IMG/VR virus record: IMGVR_UViG_3300033074_000977
Coordinates: 9,729-73,728 of that record
Direction: 5' to 3' (one strand)
DNA length: 64,000 bases
DNA from: a virus
Taxonomy: Duplodnaviria > Caudoviricetes
Shown here: positions 19,972 to 51,457 of the stretch, in pieces
How the letters are laid out: each line of letters starts with the position of its first letter
How positions within the stretch are numbered: position 1 is the first letter of the stretch
The notes under the pieces: model-generated
What the model saw: the letters and a program-made list of their open reading frames with translations, nothing else
The model's database searches: none
What the model was told of the DNA's origin: nothing
Translations under genes and position numbers: made by a program

Positions 19972-19990
19972 CTAACTTCCCGCTGCCTTT
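19962..19990. terminator. possible bidirectional terminator at the convergence point
   Basis: AGGCAG/CTGCCT 6-bp stem between converging stop codons; weak T tract. Confidence 0.35.
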
Positions 19991-20988: not shown

Positions 20989-20992
20989 AAGC

Positions 20993-21346
20993 TTACCTAT
21001 TCTCCTTATCCAGCTGGTCAATCAGCTGATCGTTCTTTAGTTTAGATTTCAGATCCTCTGGTGAGGATCCTTCGGGTAGGTTGAGCGCGGTAAGCAGCTG
21101 GTTCAAATGCAGCTTACCCAGCGCGTACTTCTCCAGTACCGACCAAACCACCGCTGCCAGGAATACCGGCAGCAGCGTGGCAATCTGGCCAGCGGTGGAT
21201 TCGTCTACGATTTGTTTGGTAAGTAACCATGTGCTAACGGTGAGTAAGAGGTTCCGCAGCACGCCGGTTACGATGGACATCAGGATAGATTTTACTAGGC
21301 TCATTGGGGGAGTCACCTTTGTGTTTAGGTTGTCAAGTCTATTCAA
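20993..21346 (-). CDS. holin-like small membrane protein
   Basis: Two to three hydrophobic segments and a charged C-terminus. Confidence 0.5.
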   Translation of the reverse strand: MNRLDNLNTKVTPPMSLVKSILMSIVTGVLRNLLLTVSTWLLTKQIVDESTAGQIATLLPVFLAAVVWSVLEKYALGKLHLNQLLTALNLPEGSSPEDLKSKLKNDQLIDQLDKENR

Positions 21347-22089
21347 TACGGTCTAAAGATCGACATAAGTATAGCGGCGAGTTGTGCAAACTGCAATGGT
21401 TTCTGGAATCTGCGCGCCTGCTTGGTAATCGGTGGCAGTTCGGCAGTAGCAGCGTCTAAGTTAGCAGTTATCCCGGCAGCATGTTGAGTAGTGCTTAACG
21501 CCGCCGTTACCAAATCATCCAGCTTCGGATCCGCCAACCGCTGGTTCACCGTCTGCACCGTCACATCGCCCATCGCTACTAAATGATTCAACGCACCGAT
21601 CACCTGCTCCACCGATGCACCCGTGCCTTGCGCGATAACATTAACCCCATCCACCAGCTTCGTCACAGACTTCGTACCAGCCACAATCTCAGGCAACAGC
21701 TCCTGGTTAACTCGTGTGTTTGTATCTGCTACCAACCTACTTCCCTCACCAACCAACCCTTCCAACCGATCCGTTGCGGCGGTGCTAGACCTCAACTGCG
21801 CCAACACAGCTGGTATCACTTGTGTGTTAATCAACCTACCCGTTGCTTGATAAGTCGCGCCGACCGCCAGTGCCGCCTCAACAGCCTTTTGGTTCTTGGT
21901 CGATTCCAGTACCTGTCTCTGTGCCACCCAATAGTCATTAAACTCCTTTGAAGTGTTACGGAGGTTTTCCGTGGTGCCGCGTAGGTCACGCAGCAACCCG
22001 CGTAGGTTCCACCAGAGATTACCTATGACGATCAAGCTTAACAATAGCAACCCTACCTTCAGCCAATCTTTTACCTTATTTATATCCAT
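21343..22089 (-). CDS. membrane-anchored coiled-coil protein (MlaD/MCE-helical-like or spanin-like)
   Basis: N-terminal TM helix, long heptad helical region, hydrophobic C-terminus. Confidence 0.55.
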   Translation of the reverse strand: MDINKVKDWLKVGLLLLSLIVIGNLWWNLRGLLRDLRGTTENLRNTSKEFNDYWVAQRQVLESTKNQKAVEAALAVGATYQATGRLINTQVIPAVLAQLRSSTAATDRLEGLVGEGSRLVADTNTRVNQELLPEIVAGTKSVTKLVDGVNVIAQGTGASVEQVIGALNHLVAMGDVTVQTVNQRLADPKLDDLVTAALSTTQHAAGITANLDAATAELPPITKQARRFQKPLQFAQLAAILMSIFRPY

Positions 22090-31450: not shown

Positions 31451-34400
31451 TTAAATCTCCGCTCCCGCTTCCATCCCAGTCGGCCCACCAAACGGCGTCA
31501 CCGTCCGATACGCCTGCTCGAAGCTCCTACCCCAATCCGCCACCTTCACACACGAGCTATTAAACACCCGCACACCGTCTGTATTCGCTAATCTAAACTG
31601 GTAGATTTTACCCTTGGTAGGGTCTAACCTCAAGTAATATCTTGCCATTACGCCCCCGGTGCTGGGGATTGGATACGTATATGCCACCCCGTCTATCGTT
31701 ACGGTAAGCGTAGTCTCGGAGTCACTCTCCAGGTCAATGTAGCTCTCCGCCACATGCTTCCACCCACAACTCCCAAGATCAGTCGGCGCGGTTTCCCAGA
31801 CAGTCGCGGACTCGGGATACGGCGTGACAATCCAGGTAACATTATAGATCCGCCAGGGATCCGCATCGGTAGGTACAATCCTTACCAACCTGCTCTTACC
31901 CGGTACCTCCAGCGAGAAGCTCCGGGGATCCCCCTGGCCATCCTGCTGGGTAGTAAAGCTCCCTAACGTGGCCTCACCATCCCCCTGCACTTCAAAAGTG
32001 CGACTTACGCCCAGTGTGTCTGCCTCCAGCACAAACCCCAACACACGCTTCGTGCCCGGTGTCCCACAGTCATCCCAGTCAGTTACACGTAGGTTACTCA
32101 GCTCGGGCCGCAGTAGTAAACTAGGTTCCCAGGTATACCAAACAAACCCGCCCCCGAACGCTGACTCGAATGTAAACCGTGCCCCCAGGTTGATCGCAAA
32201 TAAATCTTCTGGCAGATCAAACCTGGGCCGATTGCGGCCGATCTCCAAGGTTATGGTATCGGTCTGGATTAGGTTAGTGAATTCGTTAGAGTATATCGCA
32301 ACTTCCAGCTGATCACCCACGTCAGTAGCATCTAAGTTGCACTCGTAATCACCCCAGTGTTTCTGCGCACGAAACTCCCCAGCGTTGTATGCCATCGTAT
32401 CCCATTGACACTCGAAGGCATCGCCGTAGTCTTGCGTTAGCACACCAGTTAACGTCCCGACTTTGCTAGCGGTAGCGCACACCATTCGGTAGTCGGAGCT
32501 GTTCGCACCGATAGCTGGGTAGCGACAGCGCACGCCCTGATCAGCGTATTCATCGTACATCCAGGCACCACGTTGGATGGTGAGTACTAGCGTGGCCATG
32601 TCGATGACCAGCTCATTTGGGCGATCTTGAATGAGGTAGTCGAAGTATAACATTCCGGATAACGCGCTGAGCCGGAGATACATATCCTGCGTCATATCCG
32701 GGGCTGGGATCTGGTTAATATCCTTGCCCGGGATCCCGTCATGCGGGAATAGTTCGTATAACGCTTCAGTGGTGAGGGAGGTAGGCTGCCCACCTTCCGA
32801 GTAGTAGATGCCATCCTTACTTACAAAATAGATCAGCTTATCCACACACAACGCCCACGGAGCTACCAGCCCGCGTGAGTTGGCGATTTCCTGTGGGACA
32901 TAGGTGAGCGCGCCGGTGAGGTCGCGGGAAGCTGTCACCTGCCACATACGCTCACTGCTAAACACAAACACCCTGCCGTCGTACACGCAGCCGTTGATCA
33001 GCGGTTCGTTGGGTGGAGTTACTTCGATGTAGTTAGCGTCGGTAGTGGTGTTGGGGTCGTTTTCGTTGGTCCAGTATAAATAGCCCGGGTTAACTGGATC
33101 ACCGCAGGCGAAATAGACCAGTGCTTCAGCTCCGGTTCCATACGGGCCAAACACGCGCGACAGTGGTTTTCCCAGTCTAATTGGCGAAGGGAAGTAGAAA
33201 GATGTTGTTGTAGCAGCTCCAGCTGAGGCGGCAAGCTCGATGTGGGTAGTGTCAGCGGGTTGCTTGTAGAGTAAATGCGTTTTTCCATTGATCACAACCT
33301 CCGTCCCAGGTGCCCAGGTGGTATCGAAAGTATCCCCAGACAGCCAGATCATTTTATTGCCTACAATCCTGCACGTCCCACGCGCGGGTCGGCCAGCCGT
33401 AGCGAACGGTGCGTATAAGTTAAACCGCAGCAGTTGATTATTCGCTATACTCTCATCAGGTAAGTTATCGGTGAAAGTCGTAGTCGCACCTGCTGGGTTA
33501 TCCACCTGTCCAACATACAACCATTGCTTCAGCGTGCCACCATAGCGGTAGATATTAAGTTTCGTAACCTGCGGATCCGGGTGTTTTGCCAGTTGGATTT
33601 GGTTCTGCTGCCGCCGTGACAAGACACCAACTCGGGTGGCGGGACTCGGCAGGGATTCATCGCCAGTCGTATCATTCCAACCAGTATAGCGATAGTAATA
33701 AGCATCAGAGAAAACTGTCGGAGAGCTGTAGCTATCCAACGCATATCCACCTCCAATCCACCAACTGCTAATGGCACAGTCAACCGTAGCAGGCGTGGCC
33801 AGCTGCGTCAGCTGGAAGCTCGCCATAACCGCCGTGACATTCTTCAACGTCCGCGAACGATCCGTACCTACCCGCTGGAGATCCTTTACCTTGACGGTAA
33901 GTTGGTACCACTGCTCCTTACCAGACCCGATCTGAAACAACGGTTCGTTCTGATCGTTAACTGATACCCCATACCGATCCTGGAACTTCTTGAGGATTTC
34001 CCGTTTGTTCCCTGCGAATAGCCCTTTGGTCGTATCACCGAACCCAGACTTCAACGCACGAAAATCTGCTAATGCCTGGTCATAGCTGATCAGCTTCCCG
34101 GTTTCGTTATCGCGGACTAAAGTGTTCGGTCCAGCGTTGAACTTATCGTAAATGGATTTCTGGATCCGCCCGGGAGTGGCACCGACCAACGAGGTGGCCA
34201 GCTGAAAGTCAGCGTAGGATTGTAAGTCAGCAGCGCGGGCTGCGTAGAAGTAGTAGTTACGGGAAAGGTCAGTACCCGCGTAGGTATTTAGTATAGTTCC
34301 CGGATCCACGTCGAACCACAACCTTACCTCAATCAGCCGGTTGATGTCCTGGATGTATAACCCAATACTGATCTCATCATCCTCGGTGATGGTCTTGCCG

Positions 34401-35515
34401 CCGACCTGGGTGATGTCGCGCGGGGCGTTAAGGCGGATATTCCCGATCCCCGCGGGTGTGCCCACAGTTGGGTCAATAGTGGTCTGGATGGATTTGCAGA
34501 CCAACGTATGCGCAGCTGCTAAGGTTGTAGTAGTGTAGCAGCGGAACGCCCCGAGTCCGACGACTGTGTGCCCAGCCGCAATGGTCGTAGTCGTACTAAC
34601 CCGAATACAAGGTATGTTGTCAAGTCCGTCGATAACTTCGAGCACGCGTACTGGCTCAACGGCGTTGAGTAACAGCATTGAGTTTGGTTGCAAGCCTGCG
34701 GTAGCTGCGGTAAGTTGTATCGTACAGAGTCCGGTCGTGCCGGTATCATACTCAATCGCCTCCACGGTAGTATCTGAAATCGCAGGCAACACCTGTTCAA
34801 CCAGTACATACTCAGCTGAATTAGCGAACAATCGCATGTTCGGCTGGATGTCTTTGCCCATCGCAGCTGGTTGGATTAGGCAGTACCCCGTAGTGCCCGA
34901 GTCGTAAAGTATTCGCGTGATGGTAGTGTTGGTTCGGTTAACCAACGACAGCGCGCCCGCTCCGACTGAATTATTCCAAGTCGCACCATCCTGGGTTAAG
35001 TTGGTGCAGTCAGTAACACTTAACATCTTAGCTGGGTCAGGGTTGAGCAATGTCGGTCCCTGCATTGGCGGCGCAATACCCCAGTTACGCACAGAGCTAT
35101 CACTCCCTACCGCGACCATCTTGTTCTCGTCACCTACAAATAACCAGGGATCCGGGGTACGTTCAGGTCTACCCACCACTCCGGTTAACGGATGTCCTGA
35201 GAATCCGGTAGCGACTGGCGTAACCAGATCGTCACTGGTGAATAAGTTCGTGCCTGCGCCGTAGATAAACGGATACTGTGAGTTGTAGTTATCTTGTAGC
35301 TGGAAGATCGAATGCACGCCCGCCAGCTCATGGAGTAACTCCAACCCCGGACGAGGCTGTAACCCGCCCCGGTTGTAGCTGCGGATGTTTTTCACATAGG
35401 GGTGCCGGTCGTCAGCGAGCTGGTCGATGGGGTTGGTTAGGTCTAACCCCTTGCCAGCTTTGACCGTCGCACGTTGAAATGGTTGGCCGATCCCACGACC
35501 GAACTCTCTGCCCAT
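31451..35515 (-). CDS. tail nozzle/stabilization protein (P22 gp10/T7 gp12-like)
   Basis: 1354 aa, beta-rich; propeller-type repeats (GLVAPWALC...IYFVSKDGIY); position. Confidence 0.7.
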   Translation of the reverse strand: MGREFGRGIGQPFQRATVKAGKGLDLTNPIDQLADDRHPYVKNIRSYNRGGLQPRPGLELLHELAGVHSIFQLQDNYNSQYPFIYGAGTNLFTSDDLVTPVATGFSGHPLTGVVGRPERTPDPWLFVGDENKMVAVGSDSSVRNWGIAPPMQGPTLLNPDPAKMLSVTDCTNLTQDGATWNNSVGAGALSLVNRTNTTITRILYDSGTTGYCLIQPAAMGKDIQPNMRLFANSAEYVLVEQVLPAISDTTVEAIEYDTGTTGLCTIQLTAATAGLQPNSMLLLNAVEPVRVLEVIDGLDNIPCIRVSTTTTIAAGHTVVGLGAFRCYTTTTLAAAHTLVCKSIQTTIDPTVGTPAGIGNIRLNAPRDITQVGGKTITEDDEISIGLYIQDINRLIEVRLWFDVDPGTILNTYAGTDLSRNYYFYAARAADLQSYADFQLATSLVGATPGRIQKSIYDKFNAGPNTLVRDNETGKLISYDQALADFRALKSGFGDTTKGLFAGNKREILKKFQDRYGVSVNDQNEPLFQIGSGKEQWYQLTVKVKDLQRVGTDRSRTLKNVTAVMASFQLTQLATPATVDCAISSWWIGGGYALDSYSSPTVFSDAYYYRYTGWNDTTGDESLPSPATRVGVLSRRQQNQIQLAKHPDPQVTKLNIYRYGGTLKQWLYVGQVDNPAGATTTFTDNLPDESIANNQLLRFNLYAPFATAGRPARGTCRIVGNKMIWLSGDTFDTTWAPGTEVVINGKTHLLYKQPADTTHIELAASAGAATTTSFYFPSPIRLGKPLSRVFGPYGTGAEALVYFACGDPVNPGYLYWTNENDPNTTTDANYIEVTPPNEPLINGCVYDGRVFVFSSERMWQVTASRDLTGALTYVPQEIANSRGLVAPWALCVDKLIYFVSKDGIYYSEGGQPTSLTTEALYELFPHDGIPGKDINQIPAPDMTQDMYLRLSALSGMLYFDYLIQDRPNELVIDMATLVLTIQRGAWMYDEYADQGVRCRYPAIGANSSDYRMVCATASKVGTLTGVLTQDYGDAFECQWDTMAYNAGEFRAQKHWGDYECNLDATDVGDQLEVAIYSNEFTNLIQTDTITLEIGRNRPRFDLPEDLFAINLGARFTFESAFGGGFVWYTWEPSLLLRPELSNLRVTDWDDCGTPGTKRVLGFVLEADTLGVSRTFEVQGDGEATLGSFTTQQDGQGDPRSFSLEVPGKSRLVRIVPTDADPWRIYNVTWIVTPYPESATVWETAPTDLGSCGWKHVAESYIDLESDSETTLTVTIDGVAYTYPIPSTGGVMARYYLRLDPTKGKIYQFRLANTDGVRVFNSSCVKVADWGRSFEQAYRTVTPFGGPTGMEAGAEI

Positions 35516-36885
35516 TACTTCCTACCTCCCACACTAACCATCCCAGTTTCGTCCAGCTTACCTTCATCCTGCCACCGAGGTTTAGACTGTTGATCCGTAG
35601 TAGCACGTTTCTTGAATAACCATAGATCCGTCACGCGTGCTTGTAACCGTTGGTTGAACTCCATCGCGGCTTCGAGTAAATCCTTATAAGCACCAATAGT
35701 CATGGCGAACTCTGCACCGGAAGTTTTCAACAGCGCTAGGTGGTGCGCGAAGTCCACCAGCAGCTCATGGTACTCCCTGGGCAGCTGCACTGTGTCTGCA
35801 TCATCGACCAGCAACGGCGGCTGCGACTGCACTTCCACTGTCAACGTCAACGGTGTATTCGCCAACTGCGCACTGGTTGGTTGCGGCACCACGATCAAAT
35901 GATTCCAGCTAACCATCCCCACCACCGCAGGCAACCCCGGTGTGTTATGCCAGCGTGGCCGACGCGCCGCCACATCTTTCACTCCACCTACCACAATTGG
36001 CCGACCATTCAACCAGCAGTTATACACCGATGGATAATTCCGTCCCAGCACTAAGCTATCTTCATACCTGCGCGCGCAGTATTCAGCCCGGTGTGGATCC
36101 CGACACTGCCCATCGAATTCAAACTGATCTTGCAGCATCGAATACTTCAATACCCAATCCAACGATGGTGGGATAGGTAGCGGGTCCGCGTCTAGGTCAT
36201 CCTGCGTAGGTAGCTGTAAGTTGAATATCGCTAGCTTGCCTATATCCTCTGGTGGGGGGTACAGACGCACCGAGTTAACCGGCTGCGTCAAACTCACATA
36301 TCCACGTGGTTGACCGTTGGTAAAGTAGGTAGTGTAGTTAACCTGATCCGATTGCGTCTCACGTAGTTCAGTGTAGTAATGCGTCGCAGGGGTGGGCGTA
36401 GGTTCGGCTTTCCATTCCGCATGCCGTAGTTCCAGATTCCGCTCGGGCAACGCTACCACTTCCTGTCCAGCTAACTCCTGGTAGGTGGTGATCAACCCAG
36501 TATCACGTAGCCATTGTTCGTAGTTCGCGCGCAACGCGAACTTCATCCCATCTATCTGCGGGCTAGGGTATTGATCTAAGAACGTAGCCAGAGTAGCCGG
36601 TTCCAGCATTACCTGCTTGGCGCGTGCGATTAAGCTATCTGATAAGGCTGTATAAGCCAGCGGTGATGCAGTTAGGGTAGGTAGGTCGTAGATGGCTTGA
36701 CCAGCTACTAACGGTATATCGTAACGTTCAGTCCAGTACCCACTGAACGCCTGCCATGTAGTCAACGATTCATTAAGGTAGCCAGTTAGTTCATCCTCCA
36801 CCCAAAACACCATTCCGGGATCGCCTAACTTTCCAGCTAAACGCTCCCGGAGGGTTTGTAGAGTTACTTCAGTATACACACTCAT
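35515..36885 (-). CDS. head-tail adaptor / tail tubular A-like protein
   Basis: TLRERLAGKLGD..W....L..YLNE N-terminus, LYPPP and LVDFA motifs; repeated domain architecture. Confidence 0.6.
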   Translation of the reverse strand: MSVYTEVTLQTLRERLAGKLGDPGMVFWVEDELTGYLNESLTTWQAFSGYWTERYDIPLVAGQAIYDLPTLTASPLAYTALSDSLIARAKQVMLEPATLATFLDQYPSPQIDGMKFALRANYEQWLRDTGLITTYQELAGQEVVALPERNLELRHAEWKAEPTPTPATHYYTELRETQSDQVNYTTYFTNGQPRGYVSLTQPVNSVRLYPPPEDIGKLAIFNLQLPTQDDLDADPLPIPPSLDWVLKYSMLQDQFEFDGQCRDPHRAEYCARRYEDSLVLGRNYPSVYNCWLNGRPIVVGGVKDVAARRPRWHNTPGLPAVVGMVSWNHLIVVPQPTSAQLANTPLTLTVEVQSQPPLLVDDADTVQLPREYHELLVDFAHHLALLKTSGAEFAMTIGAYKDLLEAAMEFNQRLQARVTDLWLFKKRATTDQQSKPRWQDEGKLDETGMVSVGGRK

Positions 36886-37282: not shown

Positions 37283-37786
37283 TTACGTAGCTAAGTAGAC
37301 TTGGACCGTACCACCGCCAGCAGTGATAGCGGTAATACGGATCCGTACCTTACCGTATCGGCCTGGGATGTTTACCTGCTGCCATTTGGGGGAAGCTACA
37401 GAACCGTCGTCGGTAAAGTCGATGGTGGTTACTTGCGCCCAGCTGGCACCGGAAACCGCGAAGGGTGCGGTTTCGACGGCGATGGTATAGGCGGATACAC
37501 CGGTGGAGGAGTATACCGCTACGGTGAGGTTGGGCTGGTTGCTGGCGTCATAAATGTCCGAGGTAACGGTCGTGCCGAAGTCGGAGGTCGCGCCACTGTT
37601 GACCTTCTTCCAGCTTGACCAGATGAGGGGTGGGGTGGCGTTGGTTTGGGCGTGGGCTATGGAAGTAACGCGCGCGTCCAACTCAGCTATTTTCTTGGGT
37701 ACCCACGCCTGAAATGCGGCTACTAAACTAATAACCAGCACGCAAATTGCCACAAACTTTGCTACTTTATATTTCTCTGGCTGCAT
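37283..37786 (-). CDS. exported beta-sandwich protein
   Basis: Basic n-region, h-region, AHA|QT; beta-rich remainder. Confidence 0.65.
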   Translation of the reverse strand: MQPEKYKVAKFVAICVLVISLVAAFQAWVPKKIAELDARVTSIAHAQTNATPPLIWSSWKKVNSGATSDFGTTVTSDIYDASNQPNLTVAVYSSTGVSAYTIAVETAPFAVSGASWAQVTTIDFTDDGSVASPKWQQVNIPGRYGKVRIRITAITAGGGTVQVYLAT

Positions 37787-38322
37787 TACTGCTTACCTCC
37801 TTGGAGTTCCGGTTCCGCAAACGACCACTTGCCATCCTTATCCTGACTCGCTTCGCAAGTAGCACACTTGAACTCTTTGCGCTGTGCCAGGATCCATTCG
37901 TTGATCTGCTTCATCGACGTAGCGAATTGACTATACAGTTTGCTCTGCCGATCAAACACCGCTGCACGGATGGTTTCATCCTGTGACTCGTAGATCTTGG
38001 GATCCGAGATATAGTTGAGCAACGCACGCTCGGAGAGGTTACGCTGATCTACTAACTGGGAGATCTTGGTAGCCAGGGCTTCGGGGAGGGGGTAGGATTT
38101 GCGGGCCGGAGCCAACGCTGAAACCGTGGGAGTAGGTAATGGGATGGTGGACGACACACTGTTATTTGACGGGCCGCTAACTACTGGTTTGTTATCCTGG
38201 GTCGCTGCGCCCACCCCCACTGGCTCACCCTTCGCCCACACGAACGCAATCACAGCCATTACGATGATCCCCAGGATCAACATTCCAATTTCTCGACGGG
38301 TTTGTTTATTTGACGTAGACAT
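37786..38322 (-). CDS. membrane-anchored or exported protein (spanin-like candidate)
   Basis: N-terminal TM, Ser/Pro linker, helical region, CxxC; adjacent to the endolysin. Confidence 0.55.
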   Translation of the reverse strand: MSTSNKQTRREIGMLILGIIVMAVIAFVWAKGEPVGVGAATQDNKPVVSGPSNNSVSSTIPLPTPTVSALAPARKSYPLPEALATKISQLVDQRNLSERALLNYISDPKIYESQDETIRAAVFDRQSKLYSQFATSMKQINEWILAQRKEFKCATCEASQDKDGKWSFAEPELQGGKQ

Positions 38323-38338
38323 TTCTATTCGACCTTCC

Positions 38339-38941
38339 TTATGTACTTGTTGTTGCAGTTAGCGGCGTCAGGGTAGGCGTCTGCTGGATACCGCTATCCA
38401 ATCCCAACGCCGCCTTAGCCTTCTTAGTTCGTTCAATTCTATCACCGAGGCCATTACTTCCGCCATTGATTTTACGCGTAAGCCCAACAATATCATCAGC
38501 ATCGGCAAATTTATTACAGTTGTTATCCTGCCAGAACAACCCCGCAGCTCTAAATCCATGCTCTGGAGTACTTAGCAGTTCCGGGTGGGCTACGCAGTCG
38601 ATCTGTAATGCCTTGGCTACACGGGTATAGTTAGCCCGACCGGTGGTTTGAATCGGCCCACGCCCCATATACCGCTTGCCATCCCCAGCCACCACGTTCC
38701 CCAGATCCAACCTGCCTTCATAGCGTAGCTGTGCCTTGGTTGGCCCCCATAGCTCTACCCAGTATTTCAGATCCATACTCTCGTGCGCGAGCTGCCCGAG
38801 AAAATGAGCCGCGCGGAGGGGTGTGTTAATCCCAAACTCCTCCAGCGCGGCGTTCAACGGATCCAGGTATTGCTTAGCACGGGGTCGATCCAACCCCCGC
38901 ATTGAACGGTAAAGTTGTTCTTCGGTTAGTTGGAAGGACAT
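38339..38941 (-). CDS. glycoside hydrolase family 19 endolysin
   Basis: RAAHFLGQLAHES, GRGPIQTTGRANY, TRKINGGSNGLGDR. Confidence 0.92.
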   Translation of the reverse strand: MSFQLTEEQLYRSMRGLDRPRAKQYLDPLNAALEEFGINTPLRAAHFLGQLAHESMDLKYWVELWGPTKAQLRYEGRLDLGNVVAGDGKRYMGRGPIQTTGRANYTRVAKALQIDCVAHPELLSTPEHGFRAAGLFWQDNNCNKFADADDIVGLTRKINGGSNGLGDRIERTKKAKAALGLDSGIQQTPTLTPLTATTST

Positions 38942-39068
38942 AGTTAGTTAAGCTCCTTTGATACGTTAATTACGTCACCACAGTAATCGTCTGTGCTTCT
39001 TCAGCCAACGGCATACAGATCCATTTCGTGCCGTCACAAACGATATGCCAGATGTTACTATCTGTGTG

Positions 39069-40082
39069 CTAATTCTGTGTGGCAAAACAGCGCCACACAC
39101 CATTGAGCCGGACAGCAAGTGCCCCATTGCCACCTGACGTGCAGGTATTGTCTGCTCCGCTTGTTACCTGACAATCGGTGCAGATCGCAAACGTGTTTGC
39201 GGCTGTGCCTAAATTGGCAAAGGCTACACCGTTGTCATTGCCTAGAACTCCGGTTGCCCTCACGCTAAACCGTATATCACCCGATGCTGTGCCGCCGCGC
39301 ACAGACAGCAGCTTGCGATTTACGATTGAACTTAACGTTCCATTATTGGGGTCGCTTGCACTGTCTGTGCGAAACGCGGCAAGATCAAGCAGTCCGAAAG
39401 TTGATGAGTCGCTAGCGTCACTAGCGGCGCTTGTCATTGCACGAAATTGAAACCCTGACTTATCCGCATCCACCTGATAACCAGCAGCCATCGCTACTAA
39501 CGCGGCATCGGTGCTAGTGGCATTGCCTAAATACAGGGCGTTATTTCCTGCGTCGCTAACTGTGCCTTTGAGAATTTGCTCGCGTATGCCCGACCCGGAG
39601 CTAATTGTGACTAATACCGAGCCGGTGCCTTTTGGTGCAAGAATTAAATTTTCATTGCTCCCGCTGCTTGTGACTCCAAGGGTTATACCACTCCCCGCCG
39701 CCGCCCCCGTCACCTTCACCCCAGTAGCTTCACTTGCTACCGAGCAATCCACGGCAAACGTTGGATTCGTGCTCCCATTCGGCCCCACCGCCATACAAGG
39801 GTTACTGGTACTCGTAACGATAACCGGTGTGCTGAATGAGCTGCTACCCGAGAACGTTACAGTCACCGTCTGCCCAGCCCTCGTCAAACTCCCATTCGGA
39901 AACACCAACGTCTGCGTCCCAGGCACATTTGGAGATCCATCTACCTCTTTAACACGCACGCCACTACCTGCTGGGTAGTTTCCTCCCCCTGATTGTTGGG
40001 CATAACTGGATAGCGGTAAAAGTACTGCAATCATAAATAGATTGAGTACTGCGGTAATTAAGTGTCTGTACATAAAAATCAT
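39069..40082 (-). CDS. tail fibre-like protein with signal peptide
   Basis: G/S/T-rich beta repeats; AGGAG RBS favours the ATG at 40082 over 40097; SYA|QQ. Confidence 0.65.
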   Translation of the reverse strand: MIFMYRHLITAVLNLFMIAVLLPLSSYAQQSGGGNYPAGSGVRVKEVDGSPNVPGTQTLVFPNGSLTRAGQTVTVTFSGSSSFSTPVIVTSTSNPCMAVGPNGSTNPTFAVDCSVASEATGVKVTGAAAGSGITLGVTSSGSNENLILAPKGTGSVLVTISSGSGIREQILKGTVSDAGNNALYLGNATSTDAALVAMAAGYQVDADKSGFQFRAMTSAASDASDSSTFGLLDLAAFRTDSASDPNNGTLSSIVNRKLLSVRGGTASGDIRFSVRATGVLGNDNGVAFANLGTAANTFAICTDCQVTSGADNTCTSGGNGALAVRLNGVWRCFATQN

Positions 40083-40096
40083 GAGCTGACTCCTCA

Positions 40097-42100
40097 TTAG
40101 TTTTGAATTACAGTGGCTCGTACTGTCGCAGCCGCAGGATTTGAGCCATCAGCACTGATGACGCAACGCCGCACGCTGACGGTATTTGGAGCCGAGCGCC
40201 ATGCAGTGAAGGTGGCAGTCGAGTTATGGCTTTGCAGCGCATTGGGTACACCAAGTAAAATCGTGTCGCCATCTGCCGCGCTAGTTACGGTGAGAGTAAG
40301 CGTTTCGCAAGTGTTTGCGCTTGCCTGGGCATAATCAAGCGAGCCTGTGCCAGACAGGATCGTTGATACATCCGCCCCCGATGACCCAAGCTTCAGCTTG
40401 CCACCTGAAAAGGTTACGCGGTTGTTGGCAAGGTCGGGAATAAACCCCACCTCTGCGTAGTTCGTGCCCGCTGCCCCACCGTTCCAAAGCAGTGTCTGAC
40501 CACCAATCGCAAATGGCGAGGTGTATGTTCCCGGTGCCGGGCCACCGTTCTGAGTCGTTACAGCATATGCCCCTATGCCACCCCCACTGTTTGGTCCACC
40601 ATTACGATAGTAAACGTTACCATTTATTGTGAGACGCGAATTGGCGACATTTATTCCAGCGCCTTTCAGCCAGTCTGCCCTAGTAAAGTAATTTCTCTGA
40701 AAGCTCTGACTAAATACCGTGCCAATTCCATTGTCTATCTCGACCCGTCCAAAACCGAATTGGTTTAGCCGGAAGTCGGCCATCCCCGACACGTATACTT
40801 CGTTGTAGTCATACTGCATCCACGTCACGGTGCCATCCGTAACGATGGCACCAATCCGGTAGGTCGCGCCTGAAACTGTTGTCCCTGCCGCTGCTCCCAA
40901 TGTCCACTGGCTGTCGTTGGTGTAGGTCGCCATGGTAGTATAGAGGTTCGCCCCTGCCACCCCGGCCCCATTGACCACGATGCCGTAATTTAGATAACTG
41001 CTATACAAGCTCCCGCAACCCGCACAGGTAAAAGTAGTACCTGATGCGGTTATTGCACCGTTAGCCTCGTAAGCTACATTTGTAGCTGGCCACGACGGTT
41101 CACTAGCCGCCGAAGTACCCGAACCGATACAGATGTAGTATTTCCCATTGCCATTGCCCGAGGTTTTCCCTTTGACAAGTGTGCCTAGCGAATAGGCGGT
41201 TGATTGTGCCCACTCATTTATACCTCCAGCAATGATGTTGTTATTCACCACGTCTACCGTGTGGTAGGCCGATACATACAGAAACGCTGCCGACTCGCTC
41301 CGACAATCTCGAATAGAAGAATGGTCGTTAGCCGACTCCTGAATCCGAATATCCCAGCCGCCCGCCTCTAAGGCAGCCCGCACGCCGCCATTGGCATTCT
41401 GGAACCCGACCGAGTAGACGTTCACCGAACCATAAGCGACATCTATCCCGTATTTACAGCTTTGGAAATTGCCTCCAACGAAGGTGTTTTGTAAGGCGTT
41501 GGCTCCGCCAGAATAGAAGCCTGCGGACAGTGCGGACTGAAAGTGACAGTTGATAAAGAGATTCTCCGACCCTTGTGCCTGTCCACCCCCCGTGCGCGTT
41601 ACGGCAAAGGCATGTGTGGCCCTGCTTGCCGCATCAAAATAACAATCTCGAAACGTATTTCCCTGTGTGCCGACATGATTGGAGCCGTCATAGTCTCCGT
41701 CTAATTCAACACATGCCCCGGTACGATTATCAAGCACCAGAAAATAAATGCCTTCAAAGGTGCAATACTGCGCGCCGTTGGTTTGTAGGGCAGGACTGCC
41801 GCCAAAGCCAGCCAATACCGAATTGTAGCGGCCCGACCCTTTCAGCTTCACTCCATAACCCAGCGTAAGAACTGCATTGGCTTTGCAGGTGCGTGGCGGG
41901 AAAAGGACTTCCCCGCCACCCGCCGCGACTGCCGCTGCAATGGCTTTATTGACGGCTGTGGTGTCGTTCGTGGAGCCATCGCACTTGGCACCGTACTTAA
42001 CAACATCATAGGTCTTGTAGGTGGACTGCGCGCCCGTGTCACCTGTATAGACGAGGGTCACTAGCAGCATGATCCCGATTAAGATAATAAATTGCTTCAT
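40097..42100 (-). CDS. tailspike/depolymerase, pectate-lyase-like beta-helix, with signal peptide
   Basis: YDVVKYGAKCDGSTNDTTAVNKAIAAA..GGGEVLFP N-terminal cap; parallel beta-helix repeats; TGA|QS. Confidence 0.8.
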   Translation of the reverse strand: MKQFIILIGIMLLVTLVYTGDTGAQSTYKTYDVVKYGAKCDGSTNDTTAVNKAIAAAVAAGGGEVLFPPRTCKANAVLTLGYGVKLKGSGRYNSVLAGFGGSPALQTNGAQYCTFEGIYFLVLDNRTGACVELDGDYDGSNHVGTQGNTFRDCYFDAASRATHAFAVTRTGGGQAQGSENLFINCHFQSALSAGFYSGGANALQNTFVGGNFQSCKYGIDVAYGSVNVYSVGFQNANGGVRAALEAGGWDIRIQESANDHSSIRDCRSESAAFLYVSAYHTVDVVNNNIIAGGINEWAQSTAYSLGTLVKGKTSGNGNGKYYICIGSGTSAASEPSWPATNVAYEANGAITASGTTFTCAGCGSLYSSYLNYGIVVNGAGVAGANLYTTMATYTNDSQWTLGAAAGTTVSGATYRIGAIVTDGTVTWMQYDYNEVYVSGMADFRLNQFGFGRVEIDNGIGTVFSQSFQRNYFTRADWLKGAGINVANSRLTINGNVYYRNGGPNSGGGIGAYAVTTQNGGPAPGTYTSPFAIGGQTLLWNGGAAGTNYAEVGFIPDLANNRVTFSGGKLKLGSSGADVSTILSGTGSLDYAQASANTCETLTLTVTSAADGDTILLGVPNALQSHNSTATFTAWRSAPNTVSVRRCVISADGSNPAAATVRATVIQN

Positions 42101-42103
42101 AGA

Positions 42104-45100
42104 TTAGAACCGCGATATTACATACCAATTAGTCCCATTTGATTGGATAGCTACACCCTCATAAGCCGAGGAAAGGACAATGGTAAGATTACCATCTATT
42201 GTTTCCGTAGAATTACCGTCAATCGTAACTGTGTTGACTCCACCGTCTATCTTCTTCACTACCAGGATTCGGCCCGACATTGTAGAAGCGGCAGGCAGAT
42301 TTACAGTCTGACTGGCGGAGGTCGGGTCGCAAAGAATTGTCGTATCAGTTGTTGTCGCTGTTACGGTGGCTGACGTGGACGAGCGCAGCCCTACACCAAA
42401 CCCCTGACTGACTGACAATGAGCCGGTGATAGCCACCCCGGTGGACGATGCAGCCAGGGTATCAACATTCGTTGAGCCTGACGTTTTAGTTCGTAAAATT
42501 ACTGTTGCATTGTCGTTAGGGTAGATATTGGCTAAATAGGCTTTTGTATTGCCTGTAGCATCGTAGCTGAATTCCAGGCCGTAGGAGCTAAGCACTCCGC
42601 CGATTTGCGTAGTGGACGAGATAAAGCCCGTGCCAACAACGTGCAGTTTTGTGGATGGCGATGTCGTACCAATGCCCAATCCAGTGGCATTCAAAGTAGT
42701 CAGCGCTACGTTATTAACACCGTTAGTTATTTTTGCACCGGAGGTATTCGCATTGATGAAGATCCCGGCAGTTGCCAGAGATTCAGATTGGATGAACACC
42801 TGTTCAGCTACGGTTGGGCCTGATGTTGCAAATCCCGATGAGCGAATACCTACGCGTAGATAGTTGCCAGTGTCGTTGACAAAATCAAATTCTGATGTAG
42901 CCGCATTGCCGTTTGAAGAGTTTGTAAAACTGGGGCCAGTAGCTGCGTTGGAAGAAACCGTCGTGGCAGTTGCCAATAACGTACCGCTGGTTGGCAGTGT
43001 TACATTTGTGTTATTGGTAGTAGTTAAAGTTAATGAATACGCACCAGATGTAGCAAATGCGCCTGCGGTAGTAAACGCTCCAGCAGTAGTTAGCGCACCA
43101 GTGGTAACTAAATCTCCGCCTAGAGATAACCGCCGCGCGGCGTCTTGGACTTGGATGGTTAAGATACGATTGGCGGTTAGGGTTTCGTTAGCCAGAAAGC
43201 GAATCGAGAAAGCTCCAGTACCGGAGTTAAAGGTGGATAAATTAGTAACAGCTGTGATTGATCCACCCGTGATAGTTGGAGATGTGCCAAAGACCAGCGC
43301 ACCAGAGCCGGTTTCGTCAGATAAGGCACCTGAAATACCTGCTGATGTGGTTAGTCCTGTGAAGGCTGATGTACCGTTGCCGAGCAAGATGCCCGTTAGA
43401 GTCGCTGCGCCAGATCCACCGCGACTAACTGCCAATGTACCCGCCCAGGTCAATACATGTGCCGAACCGCCACTTACGATTGTAACGTTCGTGTCGTTGG
43501 TAAAAGTCTGCGGATCGGCTGTCAATCCATTTAGCGTGGTAATACCAGTGCCACCTGCACCTGTCTGATCCGTGCCACAAGAAAACGTCTGTGTTCCGTT
43601 ATCGTATAAAAGCTTCGAGGTAGTCGCATTGGAACATGACGGTAAAGTCTTCAGTGCCCCGGTATTAACTCCAGTCCCTACCAGCACCTCGTTTGCTGCC
43701 CAAGTACCCTGACCCGTGCCGCCTCTAGTTAATCCTAACGTACCGGTAGTTAGTGCGGCAGTGCTGATTCCCCCAGTACCCACAGCTGTTACGACACCCG
43801 TGGTACTCATTCCGATTCCGTTAGATCCGTTTACGATTTGTAGCGGCGTAGTAGAGTCAGTTGATATCGTAAAGGTGGTTGAATTGAACCCTAGTTTACC
43901 ATAGGTGGTGTTGGTATTGTCATTCCTTACATAGATAGATCCAGGCCCGACGTTAACTTCCGACCAACGGAGCGCCGAAGTCCCCAGCGCGTATAAGTTA
44001 TCTGAAGTTGGGTTAATGGATGTGGTGGATAGCGTGGAAGTAAAAGTCTTAGCCCCGGCGTAGGATTGGGTGCCGTTGTTAACCAACCCTTGGGCGCAGG
44101 TTGTGCAGGCGTCGTTGAGGTTGAGCGTGATGGTACCCGAGCCGGTGATCGGGTTGGTACCGGATAAATTCGGCGCAGTGCCGGTAGTGCCCAAGGCCAG
44201 CCCAACCGACGTAACTGTTCCCCCGCCGCCTCCGCCCCCTCCGCAACCGAAGCTATTAACCACACCGTTAGCGTCGACACAGACTGTGCGGGTGCCCGTA
44301 CCGATCCCATTTACCAACGTCAATACCGCGTTCGATTGCAGTGTCCCACCGCGTAACTCGGTGATCGGTTCGTCTTCATCATAGGTAGCTTTGGTGCCGT
44401 AGAGTAACCTGAAATTCGCCACCCTAAATACTGCCGCGTTTGCGCCCTGGCCGCATTCGATCTGGACTTTCAGGGTACGGCCGGTGCCCGCTCCGATTCG
44501 CGTGGTAATGGATCCACGTTCCCAACGCTCGATGATTCGACCCTGCGCAGCTGAAGGGTTGTAGCCAAATTGTCCGGTAGTACCTACGGATGGGATAAGT
44601 TTAACCCGCAGCTCGTTATAAGTAGCCCCAGAAGTAATCGCATCCGCGCCACGGCTTACAATGTAGAAATCAAACCCGAGTGTGACTGTCTGATGTTCAG
44701 CCACCCCATCCGGTACATTGATCGTCTGCGACATCTGTTCGGCATAGGCATTCCCGCCCCCAGTGGTGGGTGCGACTTCGATATAGCGCAAGCCCCGGTC
44801 TGTGCCAGCGTTAACGGCAGTCAACGCCCCTGGAGCAGTTTGTGTCCATGATGTCAGTCCACGCGCGAACGCACCGTTAAGCAGCAACCCACGCCCGAAT
44901 ACAGTGCTATAGAGATCGGCAGTGTCGTAGGCTGGTCCGGAGTTGGTTCCTTCCAGGTAGCGCACGCCAAGGCCGATCTTCGGTGGATAGAAATCCGGCG
45001 TCGAGTCAATGGTGTTGCCATAAAGGATCGACTGCGGTGAGGTGAGGGTGGTGTTGTCTACGGTAACCCCACGCGTGCCGTTTTCCAGATAGATGTCCGC

Positions 45101-47233
45101 TGCGGCGTCACCAGCTGTGCCGATATAGCTACCTTCGTCGATCTTAGCCCCCTGGACGTTGTTCAACCGCAACCCGATAGTATAACCGGTAGGGGTACCG
45201 TTCGCGCCAACGTTCGAGTTTAGGAAGCTAAACCCACGCACTGAACTGGCCATCACTGCTGCGCCACCTGAACCACCGTTCCCTTCCACCCAGATCGATC
45301 GATGTGTAATCTGGTCGGAGTTCTCGTACAGCGCTGCGTAAACCTCATCGCCAGTGGTGGAGTTCGTCCAGTTCCCTTGCCAAGTGCCACCGTCGATGGT
45401 GATGTTATTAGCGTTGTTGGTGTAAACCTGCGCGAACGCGCGTGGGTAGAGGGTAGCTGTGAGTCCGGTTGTGGCAATCCACGGGGGTTGCGATACCTCA
45501 AAGGATGTGCTGCTGATAATGCGTGTGATTAAGGCAGTGTGCTCGGTTTGGTTAACTGACGCACCAGTGATCTTGACCAGCCGGTAGAGGTCGGTTGAGC
45601 TGACTGAGCCGGATGTAACAGTGATGACATTGGACGCCGTACCAATGGTTACGCCGGAGGTGTTATGTGCGCCTGCTGTGGTGACTGTAATAGTACGACG
45701 CTGGTTTGACGGCAGCACTGTGGAGTACTGAAAAAACGTATCTCGGATTGTGTTGGCGTTAGGTTCGGTTTGTGATCCCAAGCCTCTTACATTGGACGTG
45801 GCTGGAAGAAAAATCCCGTTGTTACAGTAATAGCAGCTAAAATCCTTGATCGAACTAGACTGCATGTTATCCGAGATAATCCCATACTTGAACCCAATCC
45901 CGCGCACCTTGTCGAGCTTAACTGCGGTTGCGCCAGACTGCGGCACCCCCTCCGAGTTGTACTGATCCGATTGCAGATATAGCGCAGCACCGGTATCAGT
46001 GTAATCCGGAGTTTGCAACTGGTAGCGGTTCGCGTGAAACAGGCCGATATTGCGCAGGTTGAGATTAAGTAAGTTAGTTCCGGCTGCTTTAAGTAAATGG
46101 CCTGGACCCGTCATGATAAACGCAGACCGGTATTCAGCCGACCCTTCGATTATCCATTGTTCGTTGCGGGCTTCGGAGGGACTTGGGATGGCTAGCGCGT
46201 AAGGGTGCGCGGAGTCATAGTCGTAGAATGAACTAACTGGAATCCAGCCATCTGGTAATTGAAGCGTGCCGGAAGTATATGTATTGAAGAACACTCGCAG
46301 CGCTGCGGTGTCATCGTGCTGAATAAAGTCAATCGAATTTGCGTTACTAACTGCGGGCGTAAAGGTTAAGGTATTCCCGCTGACCGCCGTAACCGTTGCA
46401 ATTAGATCCACCCCATTGCTCACCCCATCCGGTATGCGGATCCCTTGACCCACTTTCCATGTGTTAAGTGAGTTGGCGTAGTAGCGTAAGGGGTAGTAGG
46501 ATTGGGTGGAGGTATCTGCGGTCGGTCCAAGATTAACAGTCTCCGCAGTAATCCCGGTCATCGTGACTGAGGTAGCACCTACCGCAATCAACCCGGTCAC
46601 TAGGTATAGCCGGGGATCTGCTGACACCCCCAGATCAGTGACCGCGTTATACACCCCGGTCGGAGTGCGCTTCGTCGACAAGCTACTTGCGGTACGGGCA
46701 GCATCATCCACCGCCGTCAGAAAAGGATTCGGCAGGTCGATCTTATTCCGCTGGGGATCCAGAGTAGTACCTAGATTGCTCAGCTGCAACGTCCCGGCAC
46801 CCAATGCCAAATCTGTCCGCCAGAAGAATGGTGTAGTTATATTATTTGGTGCGGTACCGCCACTTAACTGCACATCAAGTCGCTGCGCAACGGAGCTGTA
46901 GAACTCGAAGTAGCCATTTGCATCGGCTGTGAATGGATTGGACTTAGCTCCATACGAGCTATTACTATAGATAGTTTGCAGCGTCGAAGTGCCTGTTCGG
47001 TAAACTGTAACAGTACAGCTCGGGTAGGATTTCTGCACCGTAGTCGTGCTGGTCTGACCTGCTGTAGTAACTTTCTGCCCGCCCCGTTCGCAGTAACCGG
47101 ATACCTTTTCGACGGTAGTTTGGGCATGGGCAACCGTTGCAAGGGAGGATGATCCGAGGGGGATGTTACACGTGAAAGAGACGGTTAAAAGTAATACACA
47201 GGCTATGAGCAGCCAGCACAGACTACGGTACAT
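42104..47233 (-). CDS. long tail fibre/tailspike (1709 aa) with signal peptide
   Basis: SNPFTADANGYFEFY anchor-like domain, beta-helix (HDDTAALRVF), CBM-like domain, G/T-rich fibre repeats, C-terminal LPAA...KKIDGG..SNGTNWYV domain; AHA|QT. Confidence 0.8.
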   Translation of the reverse strand: MYRSLCWLLIACVLLLTVSFTCNIPLGSSSLATVAHAQTTVEKVSGYCERGGQKVTTAGQTSTTTVQKSYPSCTVTVYRTGTSTLQTIYSNSSYGAKSNPFTADANGYFEFYSSVAQRLDVQLSGGTAPNNITTPFFWRTDLALGAGTLQLSNLGTTLDPQRNKIDLPNPFLTAVDDAARTASSLSTKRTPTGVYNAVTDLGVSADPRLYLVTGLIAVGATSVTMTGITAETVNLGPTADTSTQSYYPLRYYANSLNTWKVGQGIRIPDGVSNGVDLIATVTAVSGNTLTFTPAVSNANSIDFIQHDDTAALRVFFNTYTSGTLQLPDGWIPVSSFYDYDSAHPYALAIPSPSEARNEQWIIEGSAEYRSAFIMTGPGHLLKAAGTNLLNLNLRNIGLFHANRYQLQTPDYTDTGAALYLQSDQYNSEGVPQSGATAVKLDKVRGIGFKYGIISDNMQSSSIKDFSCYYCNNGIFLPATSNVRGLGSQTEPNANTIRDTFFQYSTVLPSNQRRTITVTTAGAHNTSGVTIGTASNVITVTSGSVSSTDLYRLVKITGASVNQTEHTALITRIISSTSFEVSQPPWIATTGLTATLYPRAFAQVYTNNANNITIDGGTWQGNWTNSTTGDEVYAALYENSDQITHRSIWVEGNGGSGGAAVMASSVRGFSFLNSNVGANGTPTGYTIGLRLNNVQGAKIDEGSYIGTAGDAAADIYLENGTRGVTVDNTTLTSPQSILYGNTIDSTPDFYPPKIGLGVRYLEGTNSGPAYDTADLYSTVFGRGLLLNGAFARGLTSWTQTAPGALTAVNAGTDRGLRYIEVAPTTGGGNAYAEQMSQTINVPDGVAEHQTVTLGFDFYIVSRGADAITSGATYNELRVKLIPSVGTTGQFGYNPSAAQGRIIERWERGSITTRIGAGTGRTLKVQIECGQGANAAVFRVANFRLLYGTKATYDEDEPITELRGGTLQSNAVLTLVNGIGTGTRTVCVDANGVVNSFGCGGGGGGGGTVTSVGLALGTTGTAPNLSGTNPITGSGTITLNLNDACTTCAQGLVNNGTQSYAGAKTFTSTLSTTSINPTSDNLYALGTSALRWSEVNVGPGSIYVRNDNTNTTYGKLGFNSTTFTISTDSTTPLQIVNGSNGIGMSTTGVVTAVGTGGISTAALTTGTLGLTRGGTGQGTWAANEVLVGTGVNTGALKTLPSCSNATTSKLLYDNGTQTFSCGTDQTGAGGTGITTLNGLTADPQTFTNDTNVTIVSGGSAHVLTWAGTLAVSRGGSGAATLTGILLGNGTSAFTGLTTSAGISGALSDETGSGALVFGTSPTITGGSITAVTNLSTFNSGTGAFSIRFLANETLTANRILTIQVQDAARRLSLGGDLVTTGALTTAGAFTTAGAFATSGAYSLTLTTTNNTNVTLPTSGTLLATATTVSSNAATGPSFTNSSNGNAATSEFDFVNDTGNYLRVGIRSSGFATSGPTVAEQVFIQSESLATAGIFINANTSGAKITNGVNNVALTTLNATGLGIGTTSPSTKLHVVGTGFISSTTQIGGVLSSYGLEFSYDATGNTKAYLANIYPNDNATVILRTKTSGSTNVDTLAASSTGVAITGSLSVSQGFGVGLRSSTSATVTATTTDTTILCDPTSASQTVNLPAASTMSGRILVVKKIDGGVNTVTIDGNSTETIDGNLTIVLSSAYEGVAIQSNGTNWYVISRF

Positions 47234-50194: not shown

Positions 50195-51382
50195 TTAGAT
50201 CACCGGTTGTAGACCGTAACCTTGACGGTTCAGGCGTGGTTCGAGGCAACGCGCGTTACCCGCGAAGTGGATGCGACCGATTACGCGAGTCGTTAACGGA
50301 TGCGTCATCCAGCCCGAGAAACCCATCGAAAACAGCGGAGATGCAGAGATGTCGAACAACCAAGAATCGCTGTTCAAAGCCCACATCGTATCGCCTACGG
50401 TGAGGACGGTACTGGTAGCGGGTTTTTGGAACGCAAACTCAGCGCTGATGTTGTCATAAGCAGTACCCGCACCTGGGAGGGTGACAGTTTTGTTCAGGGT
50501 GTTGAAGTTACCGTAACCGACATCCGCACCGCGCAGGCCCGGAGCGTACTCATCAGCTACGATCAAGGCTTGCTGGAACTTGGTGCCGCCGATCACACCC
50601 CAGTAAGGATCGCGCTCGGATTGGACCAGCTGCTTGCCTTCGAGGACTGACCGGATACCGGCTGTGACGCCTTTGGTGGTGACGATCAGATCGGGGGATT
50701 GAGAACCCACGGTCGGGCCGTTGTAGCCGCCAGTGTACAGAGCTTCCAGTTCCTCGTAAGTCAGACGCTTGGTGCCACCGTTCGTGTCGCCCATCCAGCG
50801 GGGGATGGAGTTGAGGGCACGACCGACTTCCGAGCGGGACTGACCGCCATAGCTGGTCCAGACATTCGCGTCGTAGCCAGGAGTAACACCGTCGTTCAAA
50901 GCTTCTGGCATACCGTTGATATGCAGGCTGCGGTCTTCGACAGTCGCACCAAAGCTACCTGCGGAAGTGACGTTCTGACCGTGGAGATACATCATCACGC
51001 CGAGACGGGCAGAGAGCGAACTGATCGCAGCGCCGACCTGGACATCCAAAGTATTAGCCACGTTCAGCGATGAATCGCCCTGGACAACTTCGAGATTTTC
51101 GAGAAGATCCAGCAGCAACGCCACGTAGAACTTCGGATAGAAGTTATTGCTGGCGATGATCTGACGGCGGATGGGGGTAAATTCACTGCCCGCGCGGTAA
51201 GCATCGGTCTGCACCGCGTCGAACAGGAACTGTTGCTGGATCGTGGTACCGCCCTTGAAGGCGCGGATCATGCCCTTCGCGCGCATATACGCGAGCAGTG
51301 GGGAATTCCCCAAGAAGAAATTATCGCGGATCTTGTTCGGGAAGATCAGCCTGCGAGTTACAATACTAAGTTCATCTAACAT
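50195..51382 (-). CDS. major capsid protein
   Basis: IRDNFF..SPLL, GG..I, PDLIVTT, LNSDSW..; AAGGAG RBS supports the ATG at 51382; between scaffold and decoration genes. Confidence 0.8.
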   Translation of the reverse strand: MLDELSIVTRRLIFPNKIRDNFFLGNSPLLAYMRAKGMIRAFKGGTTIQQQFLFDAVQTDAYRAGSEFTPIRRQIIASNNFYPKFYVALLLDLLENLEVVQGDSSLNVANTLDVQVGAAISSLSARLGVMMYLHGQNVTSAGSFGATVEDRSLHINGMPEALNDGVTPGYDANVWTSYGGQSRSEVGRALNSIPRWMGDTNGGTKRLTYEELEALYTGGYNGPTVGSQSPDLIVTTKGVTAGIRSVLEGKQLVQSERDPYWGVIGGTKFQQALIVADEYAPGLRGADVGYGNFNTLNKTVTLPGAGTAYDNISAEFAFQKPATSTVLTVGDTMWALNSDSWLFDISASPLFSMGFSGWMTHPLTTRVIGRIHFAGNARCLEPRLNRQGYGLQPVI

Positions 51383-51457
51383 TAAACGGCTCCTTATGTT
51401 AAGGGGGAGAGCCACCTGGGGGATCAGGGGGAGTTGCGTTATTTTACAGCAGCTACC

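Follow-up and report, generated by a model that had tools for sequence, protein, structure and literature searches.

We analysed a 64,000-nucleotide stretch of DNA (the window) that corresponds to bases 9729-73728 of IMG/VR record IMGVR_UViG_3300033074_000977, a viral genome of 73,728 bp rated 100% complete. The window is most of a complete soil podovirus genome of the Tunturi 1/2 kind. Between its capsid and adaptor genes lies the block in question (37283-47233), whose genes P0001 to P0004 each begin with a predicted signal peptide (leader); all window coordinates given here are on the minus strand unless marked (+). P0001 (42104-47233) encodes a fibre/tailspike-like protein of 1709 amino acids (aa), in which the leader is followed by an N-terminal anchor domain, a long fibre body and a fibre-tip domain. 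It shares 45% identity over its C-terminal 76 aa with a Thermocrinis virus stretch annotated as 'T7 tail fiber protein' and 'hypothetical protein'. P0002 (40097-42100) starts 3 nt past the P0001 stop, is translationally coupled to it, and encodes a 667-aa beta-helix protein resembling tailspikes and depolymerases, with a match to PF12708 at residues 32-240 (34.9 bits, where the cut-off is 27) and to PHROG tail-spike families (E-values 1e-6 and 5e-6). P0003 (39069-40082) encodes a fibre-like protein of 337 aa with a conserved N-module and a Cys-rich C-terminal knob. A conserved N-module with swapped C-terminal domains is the usual modularity of receptor-binding proteins. Because the mature N-module of P0003 is nearly identical among its homologues and is joined to C-termini that differ, as do the leaders, we read P0003 as receptor-binding-like. 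P0004 (37283-37786), with nine homologues, encodes a small predicted exported protein with a mature part of 121 aa that appears beta-rich by eye.

The predicted leaders of the block

The preliminary description of this DNA had reported signal-peptide-like N-termini in these four genes, and all are present: each has a positive n-region, a hydrophobic core and a cleavage site of the A-x-A/Q type, where the slash marks the cut. The predicted Sec signal peptide of P0001 comprises 37 aa (47123-47233), is cut at AHA/QT and forms a helix at residues 2-22 in an AF2 model. P0002 has a leader of 24 aa (42029-42100; TGA/QS), and that of P0003, read from a start at 40082, has 28 aa (39999-40082; SYA/QQ) and an Asn in its core. 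In the 46-aa leader of P0004 (37649-37786; AHA/QT), the hydrophobic core at residues 11-29 is followed by 17 more residues before the cut. Outside the block, the gene at 19989-20702 begins as previously described, with a leader that has a long, Arg-rich n-region of 19 aa and ends in VCA/QQ. Gln stands at +1 in all five leaders, each time behind an A-x-A-type site. The c-regions of P0001 (about 15 aa) and P0004 (about 17 aa) have mostly short counterparts in homologues. Using a strict leader rule of our own making rather than SignalP, we found that 4 of the 92 open reading frames (ORFs) in the 73.7-kb genome pass, all of them inside 37283-47233. On inspection, the N-termini of the head, inner-tail and lysis proteins, namely the portal, capsid protein (MCP), adaptor, nozzle, 2139-aa protein and GH19 endolysin, proved to be leaderless.

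The starts of these genes are backed, as had been proposed, by Shine-Dalgarno (SD) motifs or stop-start coupling, with GGAG 7 nt 5' of P0001 and GAGGAG 7 nt 5' of P0003. The first 65 codons of P0001 contain no alternative in-frame ATG, GTG or TTG, and the same is true of Tunturi gp17; Tunturi gp12 has one such codon, a GTG at codon 50, inside its domain. P0001 therefore has no second start codon from which a leaderless isoform could arise, an option that we rejected, and every molecule would be made with the leader.

Patterns of conservation point to cleavage at the predicted sites. In the P0001 family, identity is 11% before the predicted cut and 66% over the next 30 columns, and in the P0003 family it rises from 24% to 93% across the cut. 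The P0004 family has a leader that is 17% identical and a mature part that is 79% identical, with A-x-A/Q-T invariant or nearly so; across contigs, its mature part begins with QTNATPP and is 60-100% identical, while the 45-aa leader stretch is fully divergent. Homologous fibres also keep the signal: a leader lies directly in front of the P0001 anchor domain in 134 of 144 aligned representatives of the domain family (counted as a hydrophobic 10-mer with a mean Kyte-Doolittle (KD) value of at least 2), as well as in the cultured phage Tunturi 1. Lys or Arg precedes the hydrophobic stretch in 131 of these 134. Family leaders have a modal length of about 20 aa, with an A-x-A-type site mostly 7-10 aa before the first Cys of the domain, and the +1 residue is Gln in 52 representatives and Arg in 26. 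Because conservation breaks exactly at the predicted cut and leaders recur in homologues, we take the leaders to be genuine; that they are real and cleaved is, judging from these sequences, very probable.

The anchor domain, its relatives and the host

The preliminary description had placed a virion-anchor-like domain directly behind the signal of the 1709-aa protein, and fold comparison tentatively agrees with this. The mature protein begins with a domain of about 105 aa (46808-47122) that contains the cysteine pair C48/C73. At E<=1e-3, 2006 clusters of a library built at 50% identity are related to it. Modelled with AF2 from its single sequence, the stretch of P0001 residues 1-300 gave a poor result (pLDDT 38), and we used instead a model built from an alignment of 66 sequences, which reached a pLDDT of about 95 over about 105 residues. 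The best match of this model is Pam1 7eeq_A (VIA Z 7.4, with 87 residues aligned at a root-mean-square deviation of 3.8; Foldseek probability 1.0), followed by P22 gp9N (8eb7, 8tvr and 2vnl; VIA Z 6.7-6.9), Sf6 gp14N (7sg7; VIA Z 6.4) and Pan3 (9vyg; Z 5.9, with a Foldseek probability of 1.0 for two chains and 0.96 for a third). Tailspike particle-binding domains account for four of the top seven VIA matches, at E-values of about 5e-3 and sequence identities of 9-22%. Like the domain of P0001, the N-domains of the Pam1, Pan3, P22 and Sf6 tailspikes are all-beta, have about 100 aa and stand at the start of the mature protein. Unlike them, the P0001 domain is preceded by a cleavable-type leader and has a co-varying Cys pair, and the range of Z scores allows for a merely common arrangement. 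The modelled fold is thus suggestive of a tailspike particle-binding-type domain.

The genomic position of this domain also bears on its role. In contigs L010 and L014, the adaptor and nozzle genes flank the N-domain gene, which carries a leader and is the sole fibre-like gene there. The contig that encodes P0154, another member of the family, has its N-domain gene directly before the adaptor gene, and in both L008 and the phage studied here the N-domain gene is in the same late block as the adaptor and nozzle genes. A predicted complex of the adaptor with the P0001 N-domain scored 0.00, which speaks neither for nor against binding.

The two cysteines of the domain tend to be kept or lost together: among the 144 representatives, both are present in 126 and both are lost in 13, whereas only the first is lost in 5 and only the second in none. 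Two natural lineages of the domain have no leader, namely P0154, whose gene is packed tightly against the preceding gene, and P0084, which has an in-frame stop directly upstream and has copies in L011 (6001-6576) and L013 (6001-6810). Neither has an intact pair (V..S and A..C), and both come from the same kind of podovirus. Export with disulfide formation is, on this comparison of sequences, the best reading of the pair. The cysteine pairs named previously are where they were said to be (C48/C73, C985/C997 and C1200/C1219 in P0001; C306/C309/C319/C337 in P0003). The accompanying proposal of disulfide-assisted folding is supported for the N-domain pair, through its co-variation, and draws nothing from Cys richness as such, since the leaderless nozzle has 18 Cys. 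Cys count was dropped as a mark of export for that reason and because the 13 Cys of P0002 are an odd number.

Among cultured phages, the closest to ours are Tunturi 1 and Tunturi 2 (PP887698 and PP885685), two podoviruses that infect Tunturiibacter psychrotolerans (Acidobacteriota). They share with our phage the order of terminase, portal, capsid, fibre block, lysis genes, adaptor and large nozzle, and their portal is 25% identical to that of our phage over 81% of its length. In Tunturi 1, gp12 consists of a leader followed by the same N-domain as in P0001 (39.5% identical), and gp12, gp13, gp14 ('tail spike'), gp16 and gp17 all have short, textbook leaders, four of the five with Gln at +1. 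The Tunturi phages are nevertheless distant from ours, with other fibre bodies and with leaders that, unlike those of our phage, are short and textbook throughout; the paper describing Tunturi 1 and 2 does not mention signal peptides (PMC11924767). At the same place in the 72.9-kb contig L008 there are five consecutive leader-bearing genes, and in the fragment L004 there are four. Tunturi 3, an unrelated podovirus on the same host strain as Tunturi 1, has no leader on any tail fibre protein. The leaders therefore belong to the phage lineage rather than being imposed by the host.

The preliminary description had taken Gln at +1 as a sign of a Bacteroidetes-type host. This did not hold, given that the nearest cultured phages infect Acidobacteriota and that the N-domain family occurs in Acidobacteriota metagenome-assembled genomes (MAGs). 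A search of species genomes with one pattern found the N-domain in six MAG contigs, five from Acidobacteriota and one from Gemmatimonadota, which is a small sample. In 400 kb of an Acidobacteriaceae MAG (G001:C8, loci L021-L040), Gln occupies +1 in 27 of 73 heuristically called leaders, compared to 4.0% Gln overall. Since leaders in this MAG show the same bias, the Gln at +1 in our phage can be taken to reflect the secretion style of its own host, which is probably a soil member of the Acidobacteriota. Verrucomicrobiota are an alternative, as the nearest relatives of P0002 come from Chthoniobacterales MAGs. A bias like the Q-rule occurs outside the Bacteroidota. Papers on the Q-rule describe leaders cut before Gln in Bacteroidetes and do not mention Acidobacteria (PMC5837995, PMC10653852); our phage has the Gln at +1 in common with these systems and differs from them in its probable host. 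The +1 Gln of the leader proteins is possibly converted to pyroglutamate. A plant-type glutaminyl cyclase (PF05096) was not found in three related MAGs, a result that does not show absence and does not extend to the animal type, which was not tested.

Proposed export and assembly, and rival explanations

We propose that the anchor fibre P0001, the depolymerase-like spike P0002, the second fibre P0003 and the small beta protein P0004 form one host-recognition module whose members would be made, in the style of the host, with Sec-type leaders of the kind cut by signal peptidase I and with Gln at +1. They would cross the inner membrane unfolded, be cut at A-x-A/Q and fold in the periplasm, where at least the C48-C73 disulfide would form and where all partners of the fibre complex would be in the same compartment. 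The presence of a leader on every member of the module fits a complex that needs to be assembled in one compartment. This part of the proposal, that the fibre module is exported and folds and oxidises in the periplasm, is probable. DNA-filled heads with adaptor and nozzle would meanwhile be built in the cytoplasm. The holin (20993-21346) would then open the inner membrane, and only at that point would fibres meet particles and dock through the N-domain of P0001, which resembles that of P22 gp9. This timing is suggested by the adaptor and nozzle having no leader and by a leaderless endolysin that depends on the holin, and we put it forward tentatively, as something that may well turn out otherwise. 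In vitro, P22 heads that lack tailspikes can be completed. The depolymerase, once in the periplasm, may also act on the exopolysaccharide of its own host before lysis.

The Cellulophaga phage phi10:1 (KC821618) encodes four consecutive tail-end proteins, gp091-gp094, that have a leader with Gln at +1 and are annotated as structural from tandem mass spectrometry (MS/MS). It is a siphovirus of a Bacteroidota host and, with the relation of its proteins to those of our phage set aside, serves as an indirect precedent. Some genes of Porphyromonas phages obey the Q-rule; these have no assigned function and are not fibres (PMC10367356), and they resemble those of our phage in that a phage uses the secretion style of its host. 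Searches of the full-text literature, whose coverage leaves out most subscription journals, turned up no account of tailed phages with signal peptides on their virion fibres, and in the literature found, maturation of fibres in the periplasm apart from cytoplasmic particles is described for no tailed phage.

P0002 provides a link to cellular enzymes. Its nearest relatives (41% identity) are leader-bearing proteins from Chthoniobacterales MAGs (L002 and L003, 10001-11692), with leaders that also end in A/Q, and they are encoded within exosortase-type exopolysaccharide (EPS) loci alongside glycosyltransferase and flippase genes. The sequences indicate that the phage spike and the host polysaccharide enzyme are of common ancestry. 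A known parallel is the WceF type of EPS-locus enzyme in Pantoea stewartii (PMC7949094), which has a tailspike fold; the cellular relatives of P0002 are similarly beta-helix proteins with leaders in polysaccharide loci. P0002 itself differs from WceF in being encoded in a phage fibre block and coupled translationally to the anchor fibre. Viral contigs searched singly with P0002, the adaptor and the MCP yielded no relatives.

Taken as a whole, Sec export, periplasmic maturation and holin-timed joining are the best reading of these data, and we regard the complete sequence of steps as somewhat short of an even prospect. Several points weigh against it. The adaptor and nozzle have no leader, which places the fibre and its docking site in different compartments and calls for an assembly step that nobody has observed. 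P0002 is the sole textbook leader under our strict rule, with a c-region of 7 aa, and those of P0001, P0003 and P0004 are atypically long (33-46 aa). The Fisher value for co-variation of the cysteines (8e-15) ignores phylogeny and relatedness, and 13 clusters of the N-domain have a leader and no Cys pair. The fold matches are middling, as Z scores of 6.4-7.4 fall short of about 8, the value from which arrangements shared by chance are no longer common. Export, cleavage and incorporation into virions are all inferred from sequence. Finally, the closest relatives of P0002 are cellular enzymes of polysaccharide loci, which also fits a free enzyme outside the virion. The module proteins could be exported without ever joining the virion and serve, free in the periplasm or after release, as enzymes and adhesins for remodelling the host envelope, while the virion binds its host via the nozzle or another leaderless protein. 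Their roles could then include clearance of exopolysaccharide for the escape of progeny, destruction of receptors and exclusion of other phages. Such a function would suit the leader-bearing relatives of P0002 in polysaccharide loci, which recall the tailspike-fold enzyme WceF, and the same late operon encodes two predicted exported proteins that are not fibres, P0004 and the product of 19989-20702; moreover, a virion role for the module proteins in this lineage rests on inference. It accords poorly with the match of the P0001 N-domain to tailspike particle-binding domains, with the placement of the domain's gene in relatives between adaptor and nozzle genes as the sole fibre-like gene there, with the modularity of P0003 (conserved N-terminus, variable C-terminus), and with the MS/MS evidence for leader-bearing tail-end proteins in particles of phi10:1. 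In addition, Pfam and PHROG matches and N-termini revealed no candidate for a fibre or spike without a leader in this genome. We consider a purely non-virion function unlikely.

Alternatively, the pool of protein that enters virions may differ from the exported pool, with some precursor staying in the cytoplasm late in infection and being built into particles there. The hydrophobic N-terminus would in that case be kept, be removed by another protease, or act as a temporary tether to the membrane that sets when fibres are added. The docking partners reside in the cytoplasm, and the long leaders of P0001, P0003 and P0004 could reflect export that is slow or incomplete, or a signal-anchor. Against a cytoplasmic pool stand the A-x-A site at a fixed distance, mostly 7-10 aa, before the domain with conservation breaking exactly there, the co-varying Cys pair with two leaderless lineages that lack it in intact form, and the short textbook leaders of relatives including Tunturi 1 gp12. 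This makes the cytoplasmic route improbable. The remaining option, that starts were called too far upstream or that the N-termini are hydrophobic by chance, so that the proteins begin after the hydrophobic stretch, can draw on the home-made nature of our leader rule and on the P0003 frame, which is open from 40097, 5 codons 5' of the likely start at 40082. The lack of an in-frame start among the 65 codons that open P0001, the SD motifs or stop-start coupling at the called starts, and the occurrence of leaders both in cultured Tunturi 1 and in 134 of the 144 representatives leave such an artefact all but refuted, with only the slightest chance of being right.

Generalised beyond this genome, periplasmic maturation of exported fibres would apply to a large and mostly uncultured lineage of soil podoviruses that includes Tunturi 1 and 2, with fibres attached only after the holin breaches the inner membrane. 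We regard this extension as rather less likely than not. The textbook view is that tailed phages assemble entirely in the cytoplasm, and annotation often counts a signal peptide against a role in the virion. If our proposal is true, tailed-phage assembly includes an extracytoplasmic step, and depolymerases work on the host envelope from within ahead of their release. If fibres are routinely exported, the time and place of the last assembly step change, as does the link between lysis and infectivity; the chemistry available to fibres widens to disulfides, a blocked N-terminus and perhaps glycosylation; and the way signal peptides are treated in annotation changes. This lineage abounds in soil, where the anchor domain forms about 2000 clusters at 50% identity, and its two cultured members allow direct testing.

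Other genes of the late arm and beyond

The claim of the preliminary description that the leader-bearing genes encode receptor-binding proteins stands for P0001 to P0003, which are fibre- or spike-like, and was not sustained for 37283-37786 (P0004) and 19989-20702, which we read as exported non-fibres. A spanin role for P0004 was considered and rejected, given its apparently beta-rich, conserved mature part, its divergent, cleavable-looking leader and the absence of a lipobox. The gene at 19989-20702 is the last of the late arm and encodes a predicted exported protein of 237 aa. A language-model comparison places it beside clusters of the OMP_b-brl or PagL type (0.95-0.96, although recognition fell below the mark), and it is possibly an outer-membrane beta-barrel rather than a fibre, which we regard as a lead only.

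The late arm begins with the terminase gene (57363-59588), followed by the portal (53374-55818) and capsid protein (50195-51415) genes and then by the fibre block. Between P0003 and P0004, still within the block, are the gene for a GH19-type endolysin (38339-38941; PF00182, and phrog_181 with an E-value of 2e-66) and that for a 178-aa protein (37786-38322) whose N-terminus is a membrane anchor and whose periplasmic part is helical. Small leader-bearing helical proteins like the latter accompany fibre genes in L004, L008, L010 and Tunturi 1, and the 178-aa protein may be an i-spanin-like protein or a periplasmic helper in fibre assembly. Beyond the block are the genes for the SU10-type tail adaptor (35515-36885; PF24175, E-value 3e-17) and a nozzle-like protein of 1354 aa (31451-35515), which follows the adaptor as it does in L008, L010 and L014 and has PHROG virion-protein matches; its 18 Cys (1.33%) exceed the content of every predicted exported protein of the window. 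The gene for the 2139-aa internal protein lies beyond the nozzle-like gene. Among the Pfam-scanned ORFs of the window, which do not include small ORFs or the 9.7 kb beyond it, we found no phage-encoded signal peptidase, Dsb protein or cyclase.

The holin was recognised as PF23987 (Phage_holin_10; 29.6 bits against a cut-off of 27). It is flanked on one side by a gene (21343-22089) whose 248-aa product has an anchor at its N-terminus, then a long helical body, and ends in a hydrophobic C-terminus, and on the other by a gene (20719-21021) for a 100-aa protein. These two neighbours may be lysis partners equivalent to spanins. Elsewhere in the window, an AAA_30/PIF1-like helicase gene (11775-14324 (+)) contains an intein, with matches to Hom_end_hint at residues 142-213 (E-value 5e-18) and to LAGLIDADG at residues 367-414, and a homing-type endonuclease gene of the HNH/NUMOD4 kind (18747-19265 (+)) directly follows the DNA polymerase gene.

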